A stretch of DNA of 38,781 nt from Chloroflexota bacterium (GTDB lineage: Bacteria > Chloroflexota > Chloroflexia > Thermomicrobiales > UBA6265): the NCBI GenBank assembly GCA_023424355.1, contig JAFAEA010000236.1, positions 1 through 38,781 on the forward strand, written 5' to 3'. A program made the position numbers and the translations under genes. Below the pieces are notes generated by a model, which did no database searches, was not told where the DNA came from, and worked only from the letters and a program-made list of their open reading frames with translations. Each line of letters begins with the position of its first letter. Within the stretch, counting starts at the first letter, position 1. Below, piece by piece: positions 7,111-25,629 of this stretch.

Positions 7111-7149
7111 TGACAAGGTTGAGACCGTTCGCGAGGATTTGATCCCCGG

Positions 7150-7222
7150 AGCACCTGGAGAGATTCGAACTCCCAACCGTCGGTTTACAAAACCACTGCT
7201 CTACCGTTAGAGCTACAGGTGC
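7150..7222 (-). tRNA. tRNA-Thr (anticodon UGU)
   Basis: Hand-folded reverse complement: acceptor GCACCTG/CAGGTGC, U8, D-arm GCTC/GAGC, anticodon loop TTTGTAA, T-arm GGGAG-TTCGAAT-CTCTC, discriminator T. CCA is not fully encoded. Confidence 0.8.
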
Positions 7223-7277
7223 CAAGCTGCGTAGGTCAGACACCCTGCAGAGGCGGTGTACACGTCCTCCCTACGCA

Positions 7278-7351
7278 TGGAGCGACAGGCGAGAATCGAA
7301 CTCGCATCCACAGCTTGGAAGGCTGGCATTGGGCCATTCAACTACTGTCGC
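7278..7351 (-). tRNA. tRNA-Gly (anticodon UCC)
   Basis: Reverse complement GCGACAG TA GTTG..CAAT G CCAGC CTTCCAA GCTGT GGAT GCGAG TTCGATT CTCGC CTGTCGC T CCA. Anticodon arm and T-arm closely resemble my recollection of bacterial glyT-type tRNA. CCA is encoded. Confidence 0.85.
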
Positions 7352-7363
7352 ATGAACGATCCG

Positions 7364-7433
7364 AACCGGCGACGGGATTCGAACCCGCAACCCCCTTCCA
7401 AAAGTCGGTGCTCTGCCGTTGAGCTACGCCGGG
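7364..7433 (-). tRNA. tRNA-like element with aberrant anticodon arm (possible pseudo-tRNA or attP-associated tRNA copy)
   Basis: Good 6-bp acceptor (CCGGCG/CGCCGG, with a C1:U72 mismatch), D-arm GCTC-AACGGCA-GAGC and T-arm GCGGG-TTCGAAT-CCCGT. Only 21 nt (ACCGACTTTTGGAAGGGGGTT) separate the D and T stems, and no 5-bp anticodon stem can be drawn. The best loop readings are UUG or UGG. Confidence 0.5.
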
Positions 7434-7721: not shown

Positions 7722-7802
7722 ATACACGCGACTACACGCGCATGCACGCGCATGCGTGAATATCAATTCACGCGCGGAATTCACGCACCGCCTGATTCAC
7801 GC
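7722..7802. repeat. array of CACGC-core repeats (candidate integrase/excisionase arm-type or regulator binding sites)
   Basis: NCACGCG occurs at 7724-7730, 7734-7740 and 7744-7750, at exact 10-bp phasing. An inverted GCGTG lies at 7754-7758. ATTCACGC occurs at 7766-7773, 7779-7786 and 7795-7802, with a further ATTCACGC at 7582-7589. Confidence 0.5.
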
Positions 7803-8932
7803 ATGAGGATCTCTTCCATCGCGTTTGCTGCAGGGCGCTGCATATCGACATCTACATGCGAGTACACATCGGCTGTGGTGGCCAGGCTGGTGTGTCCAAG
7901 GATGCTGGAGACGACTTTGATATTGATTCCTGATCGCAGCATGGCCGTGGCTGCCGTATGCCGGAGATCATGTAGTCGGCAATGTGGCACGTCAGCGAGA
8001 TCACACACGTTCTTATGCCATCGTGCGATGCTCGATTGTGGAAGCAGCAAACCGTTACCTCGATCGAACACAAGATCCGTTGAGACCCATTCTTCCGATC
8101 GCAGCCGGCGCTCATTCTGATCGACCTTCAGAAGCCGAAGTGCCTTGATCGCGATCTCGGGTATGGCGATAGTGCGAGTGCGACTGGTTTTGGTTGTGAC
8201 TCCAACGTGCTGACGAAAGTTCTCATCACGGGTGATGGTTCGTTGGCATGAGATTGTTCCCGCCGAGAGATCCACATCTGCCCACATGAGAGCGCGCATT
8301 TCGCCAGGTCTCAATCCCGTTGAGAGTGCCAGCGTATAGAAGGCGTTGAGCGTAGTATCACCTCGCACTACCTTCATCACGGCATTGATGTGTGATTCTG
8401 ACCACACCATACGCCCAGAACGTCGAAGAGTTGGCGTCATAGTACCTAGCACTGGATTCGAGTTGATCACGCCGAGTGCGATGATCTCCTTCATGGTTCC
8501 GTGCAGAATGATTCGCGAGTTGCGAACAGACGACGAACTGTATCGAGAGGCGAGATTGTCTATCCATCGCTGAACATCGTGCGGTGTGAGTTCCACGACT
8601 TTGCGTTTTCCGAGATGAGGGTAGAGGCGTGTCTCGGCAACCTGCTCATAGCTGGCGTAAGTATTGCTCGACCAGCGACGTTTCCCGCGCTCCAGATATT
8701 CGATCACTGCCTCTTTCACCGTCATCTGGGACGCTGGCGAATATCGTCCGGAACGCTTCAGGCGACCCACAGTGCGTAGATGGTCTTCCGCGTCCTCGAT
8801 GGTTCCGAAGGTCTTGGATCGCCATTTCGTGCCTTCCTGCCATCGCGCCTGATACCGAATCTCGCCCTCACTGGTTTGCCGCTCGGTGACAAAACCGTCG
8901 CCTCGCCTTACCTCGTGTTTTCGCCTTGCCAT
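7781..8932 (-). CDS. int: tyrosine recombinase / phage integrase
   Basis: 383 aa. Catalytic signature TGLRPGEMRAL ... CRLHDLRHTAATAML ... LGHTSLATTADVYSHV (R..HxxR..H..Y). Adjacent to the tRNA genes. Confidence 0.9.
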   Translation of the reverse strand: MARRKHEVRRGDGFVTERQTSEGEIRYQARWQEGTKWRSKTFGTIEDAEDHLRTVGRLKRSGRYSPASQMTVKEAVIEYLERGKRRWSSNTYASYEQVAETRLYPHLGKRKVVELTPHDVQRWIDNLASRYSSSSVRNSRIILHGTMKEIIALGVINSNPVLGTMTPTLRRSGRMVWSESHINAVMKVVRGDTTLNAFYTLALSTGLRPGEMRALMWADVDLSAGTISCQRTITRDENFRQHVGVTTKTSRTRTIAIPEIAIKALRLLKVDQNERRLRSEEWVSTDLVFDRGNGLLLPQSSIARWHKNVCDLADVPHCRLHDLRHTAATAMLRSGINIKVVSSILGHTSLATTADVYSHVDVDMQRPAANAMEEILMRESGGA

Positions 8933-9085: not shown

Positions 9086-9490
9086 GTGATCAAGCGAACT
9101 CGTGTTTTTCGTAGCGTGACCGTGACCAAGGAGGATGGGCGAGAGGGCAAGTACTCGGCTCAAGTGATTGTCGAGACCAACATCGAAACGGGCGCGGTGG
9201 TCTTCAAGGTGGTATCGCAGGTGTTGCCGAAGAGATGCGCAAAGTTCCGGGGCTCGGGCAATCAAGCTGCTGACCAGGAGCACTTGATGAAGCTCTGTCA
9301 GGACATGTACGAGTTCGATCGAGGATATGGGCCACGACCGGTGCCGAAGCCTGGCGGAGGGAAGCGCAAGGGATCCACACGTATGGCTATTGCGCCAACG
9401 TGCACCAAGTGTGGCGGCGATGGTTGGTACGTCGATGAGACGGGATACGAGTTCACCTGCGAGTGTCGAGGCAAATATGCAGACTTCTGA
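9086..9490 (+). CDS. hypothetical protein with C-terminal CxxCxGxG-type zinc finger
   Basis: 134 aa with a GTG start after GGAGCG. The C-terminus is CTKCGGDGWYVDETGYEFTCEC. Confidence 0.55.
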   Translation: MIKRTRVFRSVTVTKEDGREGKYSAQVIVETNIETGAVVFKVVSQVLPKRCAKFRGSGNQAADQEHLMKLCQDMYEFDRGYGPRPVPKPGGGKRKGSTRMAIAPTCTKCGGDGWYVDETGYEFTCECRGKYADF

Positions 9491-9815
9491 AACACTGCCC
9501 AACTGGCCACCACCAGATGGCGAAGTCATCGGTGTCGAACGTGCTCGCGAATACGTGGCGTGGATCCGCGAGCATGTGGCTCCGCTTCTCAAAGAAGGCG
9601 AGCGGATACTGCGAGATCGGTTCGGTGACACGGGAGTGACAGCGGTGTCAGCTCGTGTCGATCAGATCGCAGAGTGGAAGCTTGATCCTCGATCGGAACG
9701 TCTTAACGTGGGCGTGCTGTATTGCTCCATCAAATCCGGCGCCTGGGCGATGCTGGACATCAATATCAAGCGGGATGGTCGGTTGGAGCTGCGGCCTGGG
9801 TGGAATATGCGGTGA
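9477..9815 (+). CDS. hypothetical protein
   Basis: The ATG at 9477 (frame open from 9327) overlaps the end of the upstream ORF by 14 nt. Length 112 aa. Confidence 0.5.
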   Translation: MQTSETLPNWPPPDGEVIGVERAREYVAWIREHVAPLLKEGERILRDRFGDTGVTAVSARVDQIAEWKLDPRSERLNVGVLYCSIKSGAWAMLDINIKRDGRLELRPGWNMR

Positions 9816-9838: not shown

Positions 9839-10207
9839 TTAAATGTGTTTTTCCTTCTGCACTCTTCCGATAATCTTCAACGCAGAAGCTCTGTGGCTCT
9901 CATAGTCGCCCATCAGTGTATCTATCGTCATATAGAGATCGTAATCTGCGGAGTTGCGAGCTTCTCTGAGCTGATTCAAATCGTCGGCCAGGTTCTCGTC
10001 AATCGATTCGAGTGCAGTTATGACGTCTCCGTGGACCTTAGAGCCTTTTCCGAAGCTAACGGACCTATCTCTCGCGAAAAAATCCCGACAAACCAGAAAT
10101 GTCGCATAGTAGAGACGGCTCATTGCGGTGCGCTGTTCAGCCTCTGAGCACGTACCCCAGCAATTCTTGCTTGCAACATCCAAGAATCCCATGGGATCGA
10201 ACATCAC
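9839..10207 (-). CDS. HEPN-like (UPF0332-type) small protein, candidate toxin/effector
   Basis: 122 aa. The pattern SRLYYATFLVCRDFF ... KVHGDVITALES ... LNQLREARNSADYD matches my recollection of the helical HEPN/UPF0332 profile (YYA..., H-containing helix, R-x3-ADY). 4-nt overlap with the upstream gene. AT-richer than the phage backbone. Confidence 0.6.
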   Translation of the reverse strand: MMFDPMGFLDVASKNCWGTCSEAEQRTAMSRLYYATFLVCRDFFARDRSVSFGKGSKVHGDVITALESIDENLADDLNQLREARNSADYDLYMTIDTLMGDYESHRASALKIIGRVQKEKHI

Positions 10208-10662
10208 TCAATGACTCTCAAAATGATCGGTGTCACCAATTGGCAATCCCCCGGGTATTCTGATTTGTATTCGGCCCGAATATCGGATTTTGCAATCTCG
10301 AACTCTTGATCAGGCAGACGAATGCGAAGGTAAAGTGAAAGCTTTACTTCATCGTCGATGTTAGTCGAAAGACGAACCTCGCCAACGGAGAGATCATCAC
10401 GGCTGGCGAATTGTTCAGCGATCGTGATGAGAGAAATGATCTGCTCAAGTGCAAGGGGATTGTTGTCAATGAAGTCTCTTACCGCTGCTCGATGATGTAG
10501 GGGGGCCGAGTCGATTGAAGCTTGAGCTTCGGCAGGAACAAGAATCGATCTGCGAGCCGCAACCCTATCCATTCCAGTTGACGGCCATGCCCATACCTTA
10601 TCGCTCGCACCCAGGGCACTTGCGAGGGTTTCTATCACTTGGTATTGGGTCAGTCTATTCAT
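10204..10662 (-). CDS. hypothetical protein, partner of HEPN-like gene
   Basis: 152 aa. Overlaps the downstream HEPN-like gene by 4 nt (ATGA-type) and the upstream ORF by 8 nt. I could find no nucleotidyltransferase (GS...DxD) motif. Confidence 0.65.
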   Translation of the reverse strand: MNRLTQYQVIETLASALGASDKVWAWPSTGMDRVAARRSILVPAEAQASIDSAPLHHRAAVRDFIDNNPLALEQIISLITIAEQFASRDDLSVGEVRLSTNIDDEVKLSLYLRIRLPDQEFEIAKSDIRAEYKSEYPGDCQLVTPIILRVIE

Positions 10663-11131
10663 CTATGTCACCTTCATCCAACTTGCTCTTAGCAGATACC
10701 ATCTCAATGCCTTCATCGAACCCTTCTCGATCAAGGAATTTTTTGATGGCACTATTCAAGGCAGTGCGCGCTGACCTTCTGGACTTGCTTGTGGTGATCT
10801 TTTTCTCGTTGTGGCCGTCAATGAGACTGCAATACCACGCCTCATCGGTTTTTAGAATGACGAACCCCGCCATCGCGGATTCTCCATCCTTTCCAACTAC
10901 CCTCATTTGAAGTACATTGTTTGAAACAAGCATTTCCTCGAGCAGCTCGTCCCTTTTCTGGTCATATGAGAGCTCTTGCTTGTCACCCACTGCGAATACC
11001 TCTCTATAGTGCCGCAAGTCGCAATCTTCTAGGACGGTCCTTCTGGATCCGTCGCTTGGAACTAGCACCCGTTCGTTTCTGCATTGTGGTTTACAAACGG
11101 CACTGATGTCAATAATTATTGACGCCTCCAC
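10655..11131 (-). CDS. hypothetical acidic-tailed protein (start uncertain)
   Basis: The frame is open to a TTG at 11251 (198 aa), but codons upstream of about 11116 look like the out-of-frame shadow of a GC3-rich 59-aa ORF. Candidate starts are GTG 11131 (coupled to that ORF) or GTG 10990 (preceded by GAGAGG, 8-nt spacing). The C-terminus DEGIEMVSAKSKLDEGDIDE is acidic. Confidence 0.5.
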   Translation of the reverse strand: MEASIIIDISAVCKPQCRNERVLVPSDGSRRTVLEDCDLRHYREVFAVGDKQELSYDQKRDELLEEMLVSNNVLQMRVVGKDGESAMAGFVILKTDEAWYCSLIDGHNEKKITTSKSRRSARTALNSAIKKFLDREGFDEGIEMVSAKSKLDEGDIDE

Positions 11132-11295
11132 ACAATCACGCCGTTCCCCACATGCTTGAACGTCGCCGGCTTCGGTGAGCACGGCTCGAAGCGATGGTCG
11201 CCCTGGGCATATCGGTCGTGCACGTCTCGGCGATACCCGCAGTGGCGGCAATAGGCGCCGTTCATCGGGAGCGGGCGGCGGGGTGGGGTGGTCAT
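11116..11295 (-). CDS. 59-aa zinc-ribbon-like protein (MTTPPRRPLPMNGAYCRHCGYRRDVHDRYAQGDHRFEPCSPKPATFKHVGNGVIVWRRQ)
   Basis: Just below the ORF-track cutoff. The ATG lies 3 nt after the TAA of the 331-aa gene. Third codon positions are strongly G/C-rich, unlike its AT-richer neighbours. CxxC...H...C pattern. Confidence 0.5.
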   Translation of the reverse strand: MTTPPRRPLPMNGAYCRHCGYRRDVHDRYAQGDHRFEPCSPKPATFKHVGNGVIVWRRQ

Positions 11296-12303: not shown

Positions 12304-12681
12304 CTAATTTCGCTTCTTCAACATCCGGCCATATCCCTCAACCACATATCGTATGTGATCGATATCTTCCTCATCGAAATCGTATCTATCGAGTACTGGT
12401 CGCAGAGCAGCGATGGCGGGCGAATCTCCTTCTTTCCCAGTCTCAATGTCATATCCAGCGGCGGCAAGAATATCGGCGGACGACACCCTCAGCGCTTTTG
12501 ACAAAGCAAGAACATCCTCGGGAGGGGGTAGCTCTTTTGCCGCCCCTCGTTCAATTCGAGATACCCAATTTTGGGACTTGCCAATTGCGTTGGCCAGCTC
12601 CATCTGACTTTGGAAACCTGCGGATATTCGACTGGTTGCTATGAAGTTGCCCAATTTGTCCATGCTCCTAGTTTTGCTCAT
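12304..12681 (-). CDS. XRE-family helix-turn-helix repressor (CI-like)
   Basis: 125 aa. HTH segment SQMELANAIGKSQNWVSRIERG. Divergent from the Cro/Xis-like genes across a 96-nt promoter region. No SD before the ATG at 12681, so it may be leaderless. No S24 peptidase domain. Confidence 0.85.
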   Translation of the reverse strand: MSKTRSMDKLGNFIATSRISAGFQSQMELANAIGKSQNWVSRIERGAAKELPPPEDVLALSKALRVSSADILAAAGYDIETGKEGDSPAIAALRPVLDRYDFDEEDIDHIRYVVEGYGRMLKKRN

Positions 12682-23388: not shown

Positions 23389-25629
23389 ATGCTTGCAACC
23401 GCTTCGCCACATCCACGAGCCACGATCCGCTATCAGCCGGTGGGATCTGCAAAGGATCTCATTGCTGCTCGCGATCTCGAGGTGCTGGCGGTCGGCCCGG
23501 CCGGCACAGGCAAGACGCTCGCTGCCTGCTGGAAGATTCACCTGGCGTGCCTGCGATATCCCGGCATTCGCGTGCTGATGGTGCGTAAGACGCTGGAATC
23601 GCTCAAGAGCGGTGCGCTCAACACGTTCATCAACGGTGTGCAACCGATCCGGTTCGGCGTCGAGACGTTTGGCGGCAACAAGTTCTTTCCCGCGGAGTTC
23701 CGATATCCCAACGGCAGCGTGATTCTCGTATCCGGCATGGATAAGGCGGAGAAGATCTTGTCCGCCGAGTTCGACATCATCTACGTCAACGAGATCACCG
23801 AGCCAGGCTTCATGGAATCTGATCTTGAGGTACTGCTCACCCGATTGCGCAACGGCAAGATGCCATATCAGCAGATCATCGCAGACGGCAACCCGAGTGG
23901 ACCGCGCCATTGGATGAACCGACGCTGCAACGAAGGTAAGACCCGGCGCATCACATCGACCCATAAAGACAATCCTGTGTACTGGGATGCCAAGAAGAAT
24001 GATTGGACCGACGTTGGCAGGCAGTACGTGCAAACGGTGCTTGCTGGCCTGACCGGTGTGCAGCGCAAACGCTTGTTCGAGGGCGTGTGGGCAGCCTCCG
24101 AAGGTCTGGTGTACTCCGAGTTCAATCCCGATGTGCACATCAAGTCGATACCACCCGAAGAGCTTGCCACCTGGAAGCGCGTCGTGCTCGGTGAAGACGT
24201 GGGTAGCACGAACCCGACCGTGATTCTGGTTGGGCACCAGCGCGGCGATGGCTACCTGCACATCAGTCACGAGATGTATCGCCGCGGCATGAGCAGCTCG
24301 GATATCACCGACGCCACCGTAGAGTTCTGGAAGCAGCACAAGCCTGACAAGCTCGTCATTGACCCGAGCGCCAAGGGGTACATCACCGATCTTCGACGCC
24401 AGGGCATTTACGTGGAAGCGGCACAGAATGACATTCTCGTTGGTGTCCAACGTGTGCATGGTCAGTTACAGGCTGGCTTCAGTATCGACCCGGCGTGCAC
24501 GAACACGATCGATGAGTTTGGCATGTATGCGTACCCCGACAACCCCAAGGTAGATACCGACAAGCCGATCAAGGAGAACGATCACTGCCTGATTGCCGGG
24601 ACTATGGTGACCACCATCAGCGGGGACAAGGCTATTGAGGCAGTTCAGAATGGCGAACTTGTGCTGACACGTGACGGATATCGGGAGGTTGTGTCCGCTG
24701 GTATGACGAATCCATCCGCCGAAGTGATGACCGTGCACTTGTCAAACGGGAAGTCGATAACTGGTACTGCGGGGCACCCTGTGTTTGCCAATGGGCAATG
24801 GGTCCTAATGGATGAACTGCGATACGGTGATATACTTATGGAGACAAGAGAGGTGTCTTCATGCGAGTTGAAATCATCGTCTATCGCGGTATCAAGTTCC
24901 GACGGTATCCAGATTCAGATCGGCTGTCAGACCAGCGATACTACCGGCCGCATGCCGGGCTCATTCGTAACGGCGTTCAAGCATTGCATCGAGAAATTTG
25001 GAAAGACCACAACGGACCAATCCCGGAAGGGCATCATATCCACCACATTGACGGGAACCCCGACAACAATGCTGTTGAGAATCTTGCATGCGTTCCGGCA
25101 GGTGACCATCTCAGCCATCACGGCAGCCAGCCATCGTCTGAACGAAAGCTGGCGCACTTGGAATCCATCCGCGACGCTGCTGCTGAATGGCATGGATCTG
25201 AGGCCGGTATTGAGTGGCACCGTGAACACGGTAGGCGTTCATGGGCAAAACGGCAGCCAGAGACAAGAACGTGCGAACAGTGCGGATGCGAGTTCGACGA
25301 TATTGCGCGGCGCTCTCGGTTCTGTTCAAACAAATGCAAGTCGGCATGGCGTAGAGCCAGCGGTGTCGATGATGAAGACCGAACCTGTGAGAACTGTGGG
25401 GCATCTTTCCGAACCGACAAATACAGCAAGACACGCACATGCACTCGTGCATGTGCTGGGCGTCTCCAAAGTCGCACAAAGGCAAGCAGTCTATAACCTG
25501 ACAGTAGCCGGTACGCCTGAATTTTTTGCGAACGGGGTGCTCGTCCACAACTGTATGGACGCGCTCCGGTACCTGGTGATGGGCATTACGGAACCGACGA
25601 TCGATCTCAAGAACTTCTTTGGCGTTTAG
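23389..25629 (+). CDS. terL: terminase large subunit, interrupted by an intein
   Basis: Walker A VGPAGTGKT, Walker B FDIIYVNEI. The nuclease-domain motif KENDH / CMDALRYL is split by a 322-aa Hint element. The exteins are 23389-24585 and 25552-25629. Confidence 0.9.
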   Translation: MLATASPHPRATIRYQPVGSAKDLIAARDLEVLAVGPAGTGKTLAACWKIHLACLRYPGIRVLMVRKTLESLKSGALNTFINGVQPIRFGVETFGGNKFFPAEFRYPNGSVILVSGMDKAEKILSAEFDIIYVNEITEPGFMESDLEVLLTRLRNGKMPYQQIIADGNPSGPRHWMNRRCNEGKTRRITSTHKDNPVYWDAKKNDWTDVGRQYVQTVLAGLTGVQRKRLFEGVWAASEGLVYSEFNPDVHIKSIPPEELATWKRVVLGEDVGSTNPTVILVGHQRGDGYLHISHEMYRRGMSSSDITDATVEFWKQHKPDKLVIDPSAKGYITDLRRQGIYVEAAQNDILVGVQRVHGQLQAGFSIDPACTNTIDEFGMYAYPDNPKVDTDKPIKENDHCLIAGTMVTTISGDKAIEAVQNGELVLTRDGYREVVSAGMTNPSAEVMTVHLSNGKSITGTAGHPVFANGQWVLMDELRYGDILMETREVSSCELKSSSIAVSSSDGIQIQIGCQTSDTTGRMPGSFVTAFKHCIEKFGKTTTDQSRKGIISTTLTGTPTTMLLRILHAFRQVTISAITAASHRLNESWRTWNPSATLLLNGMDLRPVLSGTVNTVGVHGQNGSQRQERANSADASSTILRGALGSVQTNASRHGVEPAVSMMKTEPVRTVGHLSEPTNTARHAHALVHVLGVSKVAQRQAVYNLTVAGTPEFFANGVLVHNCMDALRYLVMGITEPTIDLKNFFGV
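24586..25551 (+). mobile_element. intein within TerL (Hint domain split by about 213 aa)
   Basis: Block A CLIAGTMV directly after ENDH. Block B ITGTAGHPVF. Blocks F/G VYNLTVAGTPEFFANGVLVHN followed by +1 Cys (CMDALRY). Confidence 0.8.
24861..25496 (+). CDS. HNH homing endonuclease encoded out of frame inside the intein
   Basis: 211 aa in a different + strand frame from terL. GAGAGG lies 8 nt upstream of the ATG, and an in-frame TGA at 24828-24830 blocks any upstream extension. HNH motif HREIW...GHHIHHIDGNPDNNAVENL. Two C-terminal CxxC...CxxxC zinc modules. The TAA lies inside the Y-N codons of intein block F. Confidence 0.8.
   Translation: MRVEIIVYRGIKFRRYPDSDRLSDQRYYRPHAGLIRNGVQALHREIWKDHNGPIPEGHHIHHIDGNPDNNAVENLACVPAGDHLSHHGSQPSSERKLAHLESIRDAAAEWHGSEAGIEWHREHGRRSWAKRQPETRTCEQCGCEFDDIARRSRFCSNKCKSAWRRASGVDDEDRTCENCGASFRTDKYSKTRTCTRACAGRLQSRTKASSL

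Follow-up and report, generated by a model that had tools for sequence, protein, structure and literature searches.

The locus raises the question of whether two small overlapping genes, the second of which is HEPN-like, form a toxin-antitoxin module, and with what kind of partner. In toxin-antitoxin, abortive-infection and CRISPR systems, HEPN RNases have a central part as effectors. The small 'classical' HEPN proteins have, to our knowledge, a single established mode of control, nucleotidylation by an adjacent minimal nucleotidyltransferase (MNT). We analyzed the pair within its window, by which we mean the whole stretch of DNA of 38,781 nt. This DNA is the complete genome of a temperate phage, which encodes a large terminase with an intein, a portal, an HK97-type capsid, a tailspike, an Amidase_2/SH3 endolysin, three tRNA genes and RecT. 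As the capsid is ~35% identical to capsids of Arthrobacter phages, an actinobacterial host is only a guess. The pair belongs to a minus-strand block, the cassette, that lies between the integrase and the repressor genes:

7781-8932, tyrosine integrase
9839-10207, minus strand, gene B, HEPN-T (AF0298-like) domain gene, predicted toxin/effector
10204-10662, minus strand, gene A, 152 aa, ATG start, acidic partner gene, predicted antitoxin/regulator
12304-12681, XRE-type repressor

The GC content of the cassette block (0.47-0.50) is the lowest in the window, compared with 0.569 overall, and its GC3 is 0.47-0.56 compared with ~0.72 in the structural genes. Low GC and GC3 in a lysogeny region commonly mark an accessory cassette that was acquired, and the lysogeny region is where prophage-encoded exclusion genes usually sit.

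Gene B can be read from a GTG at 10207, giving 122 aa, or from an ATG at 10204, giving 121 aa. On the coding strand, the sequence across the junction is ...ATT GAG TGA TG TTC, and the two genes therefore overlap by 4 nt (GTGA) from the GTG start; from the ATG one codon on, the overlap is 1 nt (TGATG). Public gene calls use the ATG start for gene B (P0001, 121 aa), and both genes are called identically in an independent 5.5-kb assembly (L004). Translational coupling of A and B would be compatible with either start of gene B. The preliminary description of this DNA had proposed an overlapping pair of 152 and 122 aa with a toxin-antitoxin-like layout, and both open reading frames (ORFs) are indeed found at these positions, with the 4-nt overlap from the GTG start, as small co-directional genes in which the HEPN gene comes second.

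To what extent is the product of gene B a HEPN protein? Numbering its residues by the 121-aa version, we obtained an AlphaFold2 model from a 118-sequence alignment (pLDDT 91.3, pTM 0.86) that is a five-helix bundle, with helices at residues 5-14, 21-46, 56-66, 70-88 and 94-119. The fold of the HEPN superfamily is a compact up-down alpha-helical bundle with four core helices. A Foldseek search of the PDB with this model returned HEPN structures at all of ranks 1-27 (probability 0.8-1.0, TM 0.5-0.69, with E-values of only 0.03-1), headed by AF_0298 (2hsb) and followed by HepT SO_3166, 1wwp, YutE and the sacsin HEPN domain; the same search against BFVD was uninformative. By sequence, the protein alone matches the PDB entry 9xbd, a 'HEPN domain-containing protein', at E 0.07, and a four-sequence profile that includes weak phage relatives reaches the same entry at E 1.4e-6.

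The window protein matches neither PF05168 nor any other HEPN model in Pfam at E up to 1, and its link to PF05168 is transitive. A profile search of 5.8e9 proteins retrieved 151 relatives, the more distant of which are annotated as PF05168 (HEPN) and 'UPF0332 family', and the PF05168-annotated proteins are reached at E 1e-14 to 1e-10; one relative itself matches PF05168 at E 0.026. The sole PADLOC match is a partial one to HEPN_IX (E 2.3e-5, residues 14-46), and in PHROGs the protein matches PHROG 5176, of unknown function (E 7e-10). Membership of the AbiV group was considered and rejected, there being no HEPN_AbiV match in Pfam or PADLOC. The model with its 27 top PDB matches, the profile match to 9xbd and the profile search agree that the 121- or 122-aa protein is a genuine HEPN domain, of the AF0298-like HEPN-T variant. 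The earlier assignment as HEPN-like is thus borne out, and the structure check that had been proposed for it, run here by AlphaFold2 and Foldseek, returned a HEPN fold. Our literature searches found no paper on this HEPN clade, nor any on 9xbd, UPF0332 or TIGR04255.

The motif places the protein more precisely. It reads R83-N-S-A-D87-Y88, and the histidine of the Rx4-6H position is missing throughout the clade. In an alignment of 30 closer sequences (A4), the residues R25, S29, R30, Y32, Y33, H58, L79, R83, A86 and Y88 never vary, and D87 is conserved in at least 90%; the window protein retains every invariant position. In an alignment of 118 relatives (A6), only R30, Y32 and H58 are invariant, and the remaining A4 positions, including R83 and D87, are conserved in at least 90%. 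H58 lies in the short helix 56-66 of the model, between helices 21-46 and 70-88. An AF0298-like type of HEPN-T/PF05168 protein has been described that has D instead of the His and a further conserved His between helices 2 and 3; this second His could form an alternative active site, an activity that has only been proposed (Anantharaman et al. 2013, PMC3710099). The window protein has this pattern: R83 is kept, D87 replaces the His, and the additional conserved His (H58) is N-terminal to the motif. The preliminary description had stressed R-N-x-A-D-Y in place of the classical motif; the observation is correct, and the His is absent, but the motif is not new, because R83...D87 together with H58 is the AF0298-like pattern of the 2013 HEPN-T variant (PMC3710099).

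A HEPN domain that lacks the histidine of the Rx4-6H position may be no enzyme at all. The HEPN-T protein could be a non-catalytic RNA or nucleotide binder, or an adaptor, and the pair a non-toxic regulatory or structural phage complex; motif-less HEPN domains can be non-catalytic binders, as in MtlR (PMC3710099), and with a pI of 5.3 the window protein is on the acidic side, which most of its relatives are not. We regard this as unlikely. The polar residues R25, S29, R30, Y32, Y33, H58, R83, D87 and Y88 are conserved over many phyla, being invariant or present in at least 90% of the 118 relatives, which argues for an active site, and the alternative-His arrangement is one that has been proposed to be catalytic (PMC3710099). 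The nature of the partner, to which we now turn, bears on the same point.

Direct searches with the 152-aa protein returned no match in Pfam, NCBIfam, PADLOC, PHROG or PDB and no nucleotidyltransferase signature. The protein itself was the sole match both by phmmer in 1.84e9 representative proteins and in a word index of 5.8e9 proteins, and tblastn against phages gave no match. Its single-sequence AlphaFold2 model is unreliable (pLDDT 51) and thus too poor for a fold search. The preliminary description had reported no MNT signature in this protein, in agreement with the library searches. We rejected an MNT identity of the partner: no nucleotidyltransferase match was obtained for the 152-aa protein or for 40 members of the partner family introduced below, and the family profile has no PDB match to MntA.

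The relatives of the HEPN gene were more informative. Three weak matches from phages already show the HEPN gene in second place within an overlapping pair. We scanned the GTDB species representatives with the peptide RSAVSRAYY, which identified 259 HEPN relatives from many phyla, and fetched 80 loci. The clade ranges over Chloroflexota, Cyanobacteria, Acidobacteriota, Actinomycetota, Proteobacteria, archaeal viruses and phages, with more than 250 species-level representatives; it is rare in viral contigs, where about 8 loci of the HEPN/partner family were found. Nearly all of the fetched loci contain a same-strand ORF of 100-250 aa that ends -10 to +20 nt from the HEPN start, and pairwise phmmer (E<1e-3) groups 75 of 81 upstream proteins in a single family. 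Using HMMs of both families, we considered the 97 HEPN genes for which sufficient upstream sequence was available, and 85 of them have the partner domain directly upstream. Conversely, among 67 metagenome loci seeded with the partner, 58 carry a HEPN gene directly downstream. Several of the exceptions are truncated HEPN remnants beside an intact partner, and another lies in an island of toxin-antitoxin genes between gyrB and gyrA, genes which from their translations, not from HMM matches, we take to be YoeB-, DUF433- and MqsA-like. One locus contains two tandem partner+HEPN modules. The pair thus recurs outside this genome at the level of the family, which was the co-occurrence check that had been suggested for it.

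The partner domain is C-terminal, of ~110 aa, and follows N-terminal extensions of variable length, in one member an XRE helix-turn-helix (HTH) domain. Its consensus is eV..FL..hP.L..lL.EA...I..hFG......LEVv.DPE....eLf..I.T.l...A...L..lD..WWL....G.L.IdvEf, with a conserved F-G and, ~12 residues on, a D-P-E; only two positions (F and D) reach 90% conservation. Searches of the family against Pfam and NCBIfam gave no match except to the fused HTH, and the family has no match in PADLOC or PDB. Partner and HEPN genes typically overlap by 1-4 nt, and in ~20-25% of the loci a TIGR04255-family gene lies directly upstream, giving a three-gene form. The partner proteins are acidic (median pI 4.6) and the HEPN proteins basic (median pI 8.6), the HEPN protein being the more basic in 98.6% of the pairs. 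Small co-directional overlapping genes that co-occur across many phyla and phages, as found here, are the generic mark of type II modules. Further features of the partner are also toxin-antitoxin-like, namely its strict 5' position, its acidity, the HTH fusion, the decayed HEPN genes beside intact partners and the occurrence in a toxin-antitoxin island, and they speak against a non-catalytic HEPN protein. The HEPN motif variant is already known, as are HEPN toxins with protein antitoxins as a kind; what appears to be undescribed in the libraries and literature that we searched is that this HEPN-T clade is coupled to a conserved, unannotated domain and not to MNT.

Whether the 152-aa protein of the window belongs to this family is a separate matter, as it might be a phage ORFan without relation to the family, placed by coincidence before a solo HEPN gene, with a profile match due to chance and no functional module at all. 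The failure of phmmer to retrieve anything but the protein itself from 1.84e9 proteins fits such an ORFan, and its pairwise BLAST and phmmer scores are all below significance. The partner HMM nevertheless matches the protein at residues 55-126 with 10-10.9 bits (E about 2e-5 for one target). None of 5000 shuffles of the protein reached its score (best shuffle, 9.9 bits), nor did any of the decoys in a set of 3546 six-frame ORFs from 101 loci (~2950 decoys; best decoy, 7.6): the ORFs with at least 10 bits are all partner genes upstream of HEPN or one of two window ORFs. An hhalign comparison with the partner family aligned the same region in the same register as HMMER, at E 0.0024 and a probability of 12%, the latter again in favor of an ORFan.

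In pairwise phmmer searches, partner genes account for 8/15 of the top matches of the 152-aa protein, compared with 1/15 for a control protein, and they make up 2.6% of the ORF set (hypergeometric P 8e-10, or 4e-4 with a conservative background). A Mann-Whitney comparison of partner with other ORF scores proved to be confounded and was discarded because the control protein (win_111) was 'significant' too; the top-15 counts and the decoy maxima were used instead. The predicted secondary structure of the 152-aa protein (helix, helix, strand, strand, final strand; model pLDDT 51) is compatible with the family alignment and agrees with it in order, and its gene occupies the exact position of a partner, 5' and overlapping, that is seen in 85/97 loci. 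In the HMM alignment the protein is without the near-invariant D of DPE, and neither the DPE nor the WW signature can be clearly recognized. On balance we judge the 152-aa protein likely to be a member of the partner-domain family, although a very divergent one, and the ORFan alternative to be improbable. The preliminary description had suggested that the module may have a new partner or regulation mechanism; the partner is probably not a one-off but a divergent member of a conserved unannotated family, through a weak link of 10-11 bits.

A second partner-like gene is found on the other side of the HEPN gene:

9477-9815, plus strand, 112-aa gene, convergent on the HEPN gene, match to the partner HMM

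A gap of 23 nt separates its end from the HEPN stop codon. Its product scores 11.2-13.9 bits against the partner HMM (best of 5000 shuffles, 7.5), and apart from this ORF and the 152-aa one, none in the window exceeds 4 bits. The top two of 227 window ORFs against this HMM are therefore the genes that flank HEPN, which is unlikely to arise by chance. The 112-aa gene has a GC content of 0.578, like the phage backbone and unlike the cassette. Direct BLAST of the 152-aa against the 112-aa protein detected no similarity, and no second HEPN gene was found within the window. The 112-aa gene is possibly a second partner paralogue, which would be expressed separately.

Upstream of gene A we identified three further features that suggest how the pair may be expressed:

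10655-10990, minus strand, 111-aa gene with GTG start and GAGAGG ribosome-binding site, public gene call in L004
11083-11112, minus strand, sigma-70-like promoter candidate (TTGACA, 18-nt spacer, CACAAT)
11108-11123, perfect 16-bp palindrome GTCAATAATTATTGAC, overlapping the -35 hexamer

The 111-aa gene has the low GC content of the rest of the cassette (0.467), and family searches with its product, including PHROGs, gave no match. This gene, which the preliminary description had not noted, shares 8 nt with gene A. The unit therefore probably comprises three genes, and the 111-aa gene is probably the first of an operon in the order 111 aa, 152 aa and 121 aa. The promoter candidate was found by a consensus scan (10/12 consensus matches) and lies ~90 nt upstream of the 111-aa gene; as sigma-70-like sites are no more numerous in the region than expected by chance, it is suggestive by position only. 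The palindrome GTCAATAATTATTGAC is unique in the window even with 3 mismatches allowed (0.10 matches expected) and is a candidate operator.

The module can be compared with several known systems. The AF0298-type HEPN-T/PF05168 protein (2hsb) has the same fold and the same R/D/alternative-His variant as the window protein. It differs in that the window protein falls below the Pfam HEPN models and in the gene partner of the window protein's clade, which is an unannotated acidic domain and not MNT. The type VII HepT/MntA modules (Shewanella SO_3166/SO_3165, Legionella HEPN-MNT) likewise have a small HEPN gene second in an overlapping operon, and HepT resembles the window HEPN protein in structure (TM 0.6-0.68) and in the conserved Tyr adjoining the motif. 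In HepT/MntA, however, the partner is an MNT and the motif Rx4HxY, whereas the window pair has a non-nucleotidyltransferase partner and R-x3-D-Y with a distal His; the chemistry of neutralization is therefore probably different.

In an alternative closer to type VII, the partner would be an unrecognized enzyme acting on the HEPN protein by covalent modification, for example of Tyr88, much as MntA AMPylates a Tyr of HepT. MNT antitoxins act by NMPylation of HEPN (PMC11586414). Tyr88, which follows the motif, is invariant in A4 (30 sequences) and present in at least 90% of the 118 relatives; the PDB entry 9xbc is a variant of 9xbd in which DY is changed to DF, from which we infer that its depositors probed this Tyr; and the partner family has its conserved F-G, followed ~12 residues later by D-P-E. 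Against such an enzyme, the partner profile matches neither MntA nor any nucleotidyltransferase in the PDB at E up to 10, and 40 partner proteins have no nucleotidyltransferase match in Pfam (E up to 0.1) or NCBIfam (E up to 0.01). Conservation of at least 90% is confined to F and D, unlike in an enzyme, and the D is missing from the window partner in the HMM alignment. The predicted order of helix-helix-strand-strand-helix-strand would also misfit a pol-beta nucleotidyltransferase core. We consider covalent modification by the partner very improbable.

The conceptually closest mechanism to the one we propose is that of RnlA-RnlB and LsoA-LsoB, anti-phage systems in which a HEPN RNase is kept inactive by the binding of a labile protein partner (PMC3710099). 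They differ from the window pair in having no sequence relationship to it and in the large, multidomain RnlA. AbiV, the lactococcal HEPN protein of anti-phage abortive infection, shares the alternative His with AF0298-like HEPN-T proteins (PMC3710099) and is reported to be neutralized by an RNA in a type III-like manner (bioRxiv 10.1101/2024.05.05.592566); the antitoxin of the window HEPN protein is predicted to be the upstream protein partner instead. As to gene order, the position of the window partner may be compared with that in the RnlA-RnlB and LsoA-LsoB systems. In these systems the antitoxin gene is downstream.

We propose that the pair is probably a copy of a widespread, unnamed two-gene cassette that resembles a toxin-antitoxin or phage-exclusion module. 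Its HEPN-T protein is predicted to be a metal-independent RNase, with an active site that would combine R83 and D87, at the end of the motif helix, with the alternative His58. The conserved R25, S29-R30 and Y32-Y33 lie on helix 2. In the acidic 152-aa protein, the C-terminal ~100 residues would be a very divergent form of the partner domain that is elsewhere almost always encoded immediately 5' of this HEPN clade. The 152-aa partner is predicted to bind the HEPN protein and neutralize its presumed toxicity, and translational coupling would ensure that the antidote is synthesized before the toxin. Transcription of the operon of 111, 152 and 121 aa would probably be driven from the promoter with the palindromic operator, and expression of the cassette from the prophage may exclude other phages or stabilize the prophage. 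The reading that we favor, with reasonable though far from complete confidence, is that the temperate phage carries here, in its lysogeny region, an accessory ('moron') cassette that acts as a type II-like toxin-antitoxin or abortive-infection module.

A more far-reaching reading, which we hold to be speculative and rather unlikely in its entirety, is that HEPN-T and the acidic partner constitute a widespread uncharacterized toxin-antitoxin or defence family with a new antitoxin fold, which includes the three-gene TIGR04255 form of ~20-25% of the loci. In this phage, the 112-aa paralogue would then be a separately regulated antidote that protects the phage during lytic growth, or an orphan antitoxin that serves as counter-defence against host-encoded copies of the toxin.

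For the family as a whole, the finding is that the AF0298-like HEPN clade is coupled to an unannotated acidic domain in place of MNT. If the partner proves to be an antitoxin, it would represent a new antitoxin family and would open a route to testing whether the 'alternative-His' HEPN site put forward in 2013 is a real RNase site. The phage copy provides a compact and testable example of the HEPN-T and partner cassette.

In about 20-25% of loci (genome loci L001, L002, L006, L010, L021-L026, L035, L039, L050, L060, L064, L073, L075, L086, L092 and L099), the gene immediately 5′ of the partner gene, which encodes the predicted antitoxin, belongs to TIGR04255, a family of about 240-260 aa with no assigned function. 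The conserved three-gene order is TIGR04255, partner, HEPN-T, and in the window the TIGR04255 position is taken by an unrelated 111-aa gene.

The partners of the phage-borne copies seem more divergent than the chromosomal ones. In this set of Burkholderia/Achromobacter and other proteobacterial phages or prophages (L003, L005, L007-L009, L013-L015, L102, L103), the gene 5′ of the HEPN gene encodes a product of about 255 aa, which may have TPR-like repeats, judging from a reading of the sequences and from one NCBIfam match (TPR-end against the L003 protein, sub-threshold at E 0.065). The C-terminus of the upstream protein matches the partner domain faintly, at 4-7 bits only, in the Burkholderia/Achromobacter loci (L003, L008, L009, L013-L015); the upstream proteins of L005 and L007 gave no match to this domain, nor did any of the upstream ORFs of L102 and L103.

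In seven metagenome loci (L113-L117, L157, L183) the partner gene is intact, and the HEPN gene after it survives as a remnant that is truncated or frameshifted. The predicted toxin has decayed and the putative antitoxin has been kept, a frequent pattern in decaying toxin-antitoxin loci. On a further metagenome contig (L104, Ga0247727_10000378), a toxin-antitoxin-like gene cluster between gyrB and gyrA includes a partner gene that lacks a HEPN gene; its YoeB-like, DUF433-like and MqsA-like neighbours were identified by eye.

Two recent PDB entries, 9xbd and 9xbc, hold the same small "HEPN domain-containing protein" and read RNRSDYD and RNRSDFD, respectively. The change has the appearance of a Tyr-to-Phe mutation at the position that corresponds to Tyr88 of the window protein; a literature search for the two entries found no paper.

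Elsewhere in the window, the large terminase gene (23389-25629, + strand) carries an intein, with Intein_splicing, PT-HINT and Hint_2 matches within residues about 400-720. Three tandem tRNA genes (7148-7433, − strand) adjoin the integrase within the phage genome: Thr-TGT, Gly-TCC and a third with an abnormal 2-nt anticodon (ARAGORN).

Further features around the window's 111-152-121 aa operon:

11108-11123, perfect 16-bp palindrome GTCAATAATTATTGAC, candidate operator
9477-9815, + strand, 112-aa gene in convergent orientation to the HEPN gene, matching the partner-domain profile
9086-9490, + strand, 134-aa gene upstream of the 112-aa gene, its product ending in a zinc-ribbon-like region (C-terminal motif CxxC...CxC)

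The palindrome, which occurs once in the window, overlaps the −35 hexamer of a promoter-like site ahead of the operon and is a candidate operator; the stop codon of a 59-aa ORF (11116-11295, − strand) also falls within it.

The 134-aa and 112-aa genes overlap by 14 nt. The partner-domain profile scores the 112-aa gene, whose GC content is of the phage-backbone type, at 11-14 bits, exceeding every shuffle and decoy. This gene may encode a further antidote that is expressed separately, or else an orphan antitoxin.
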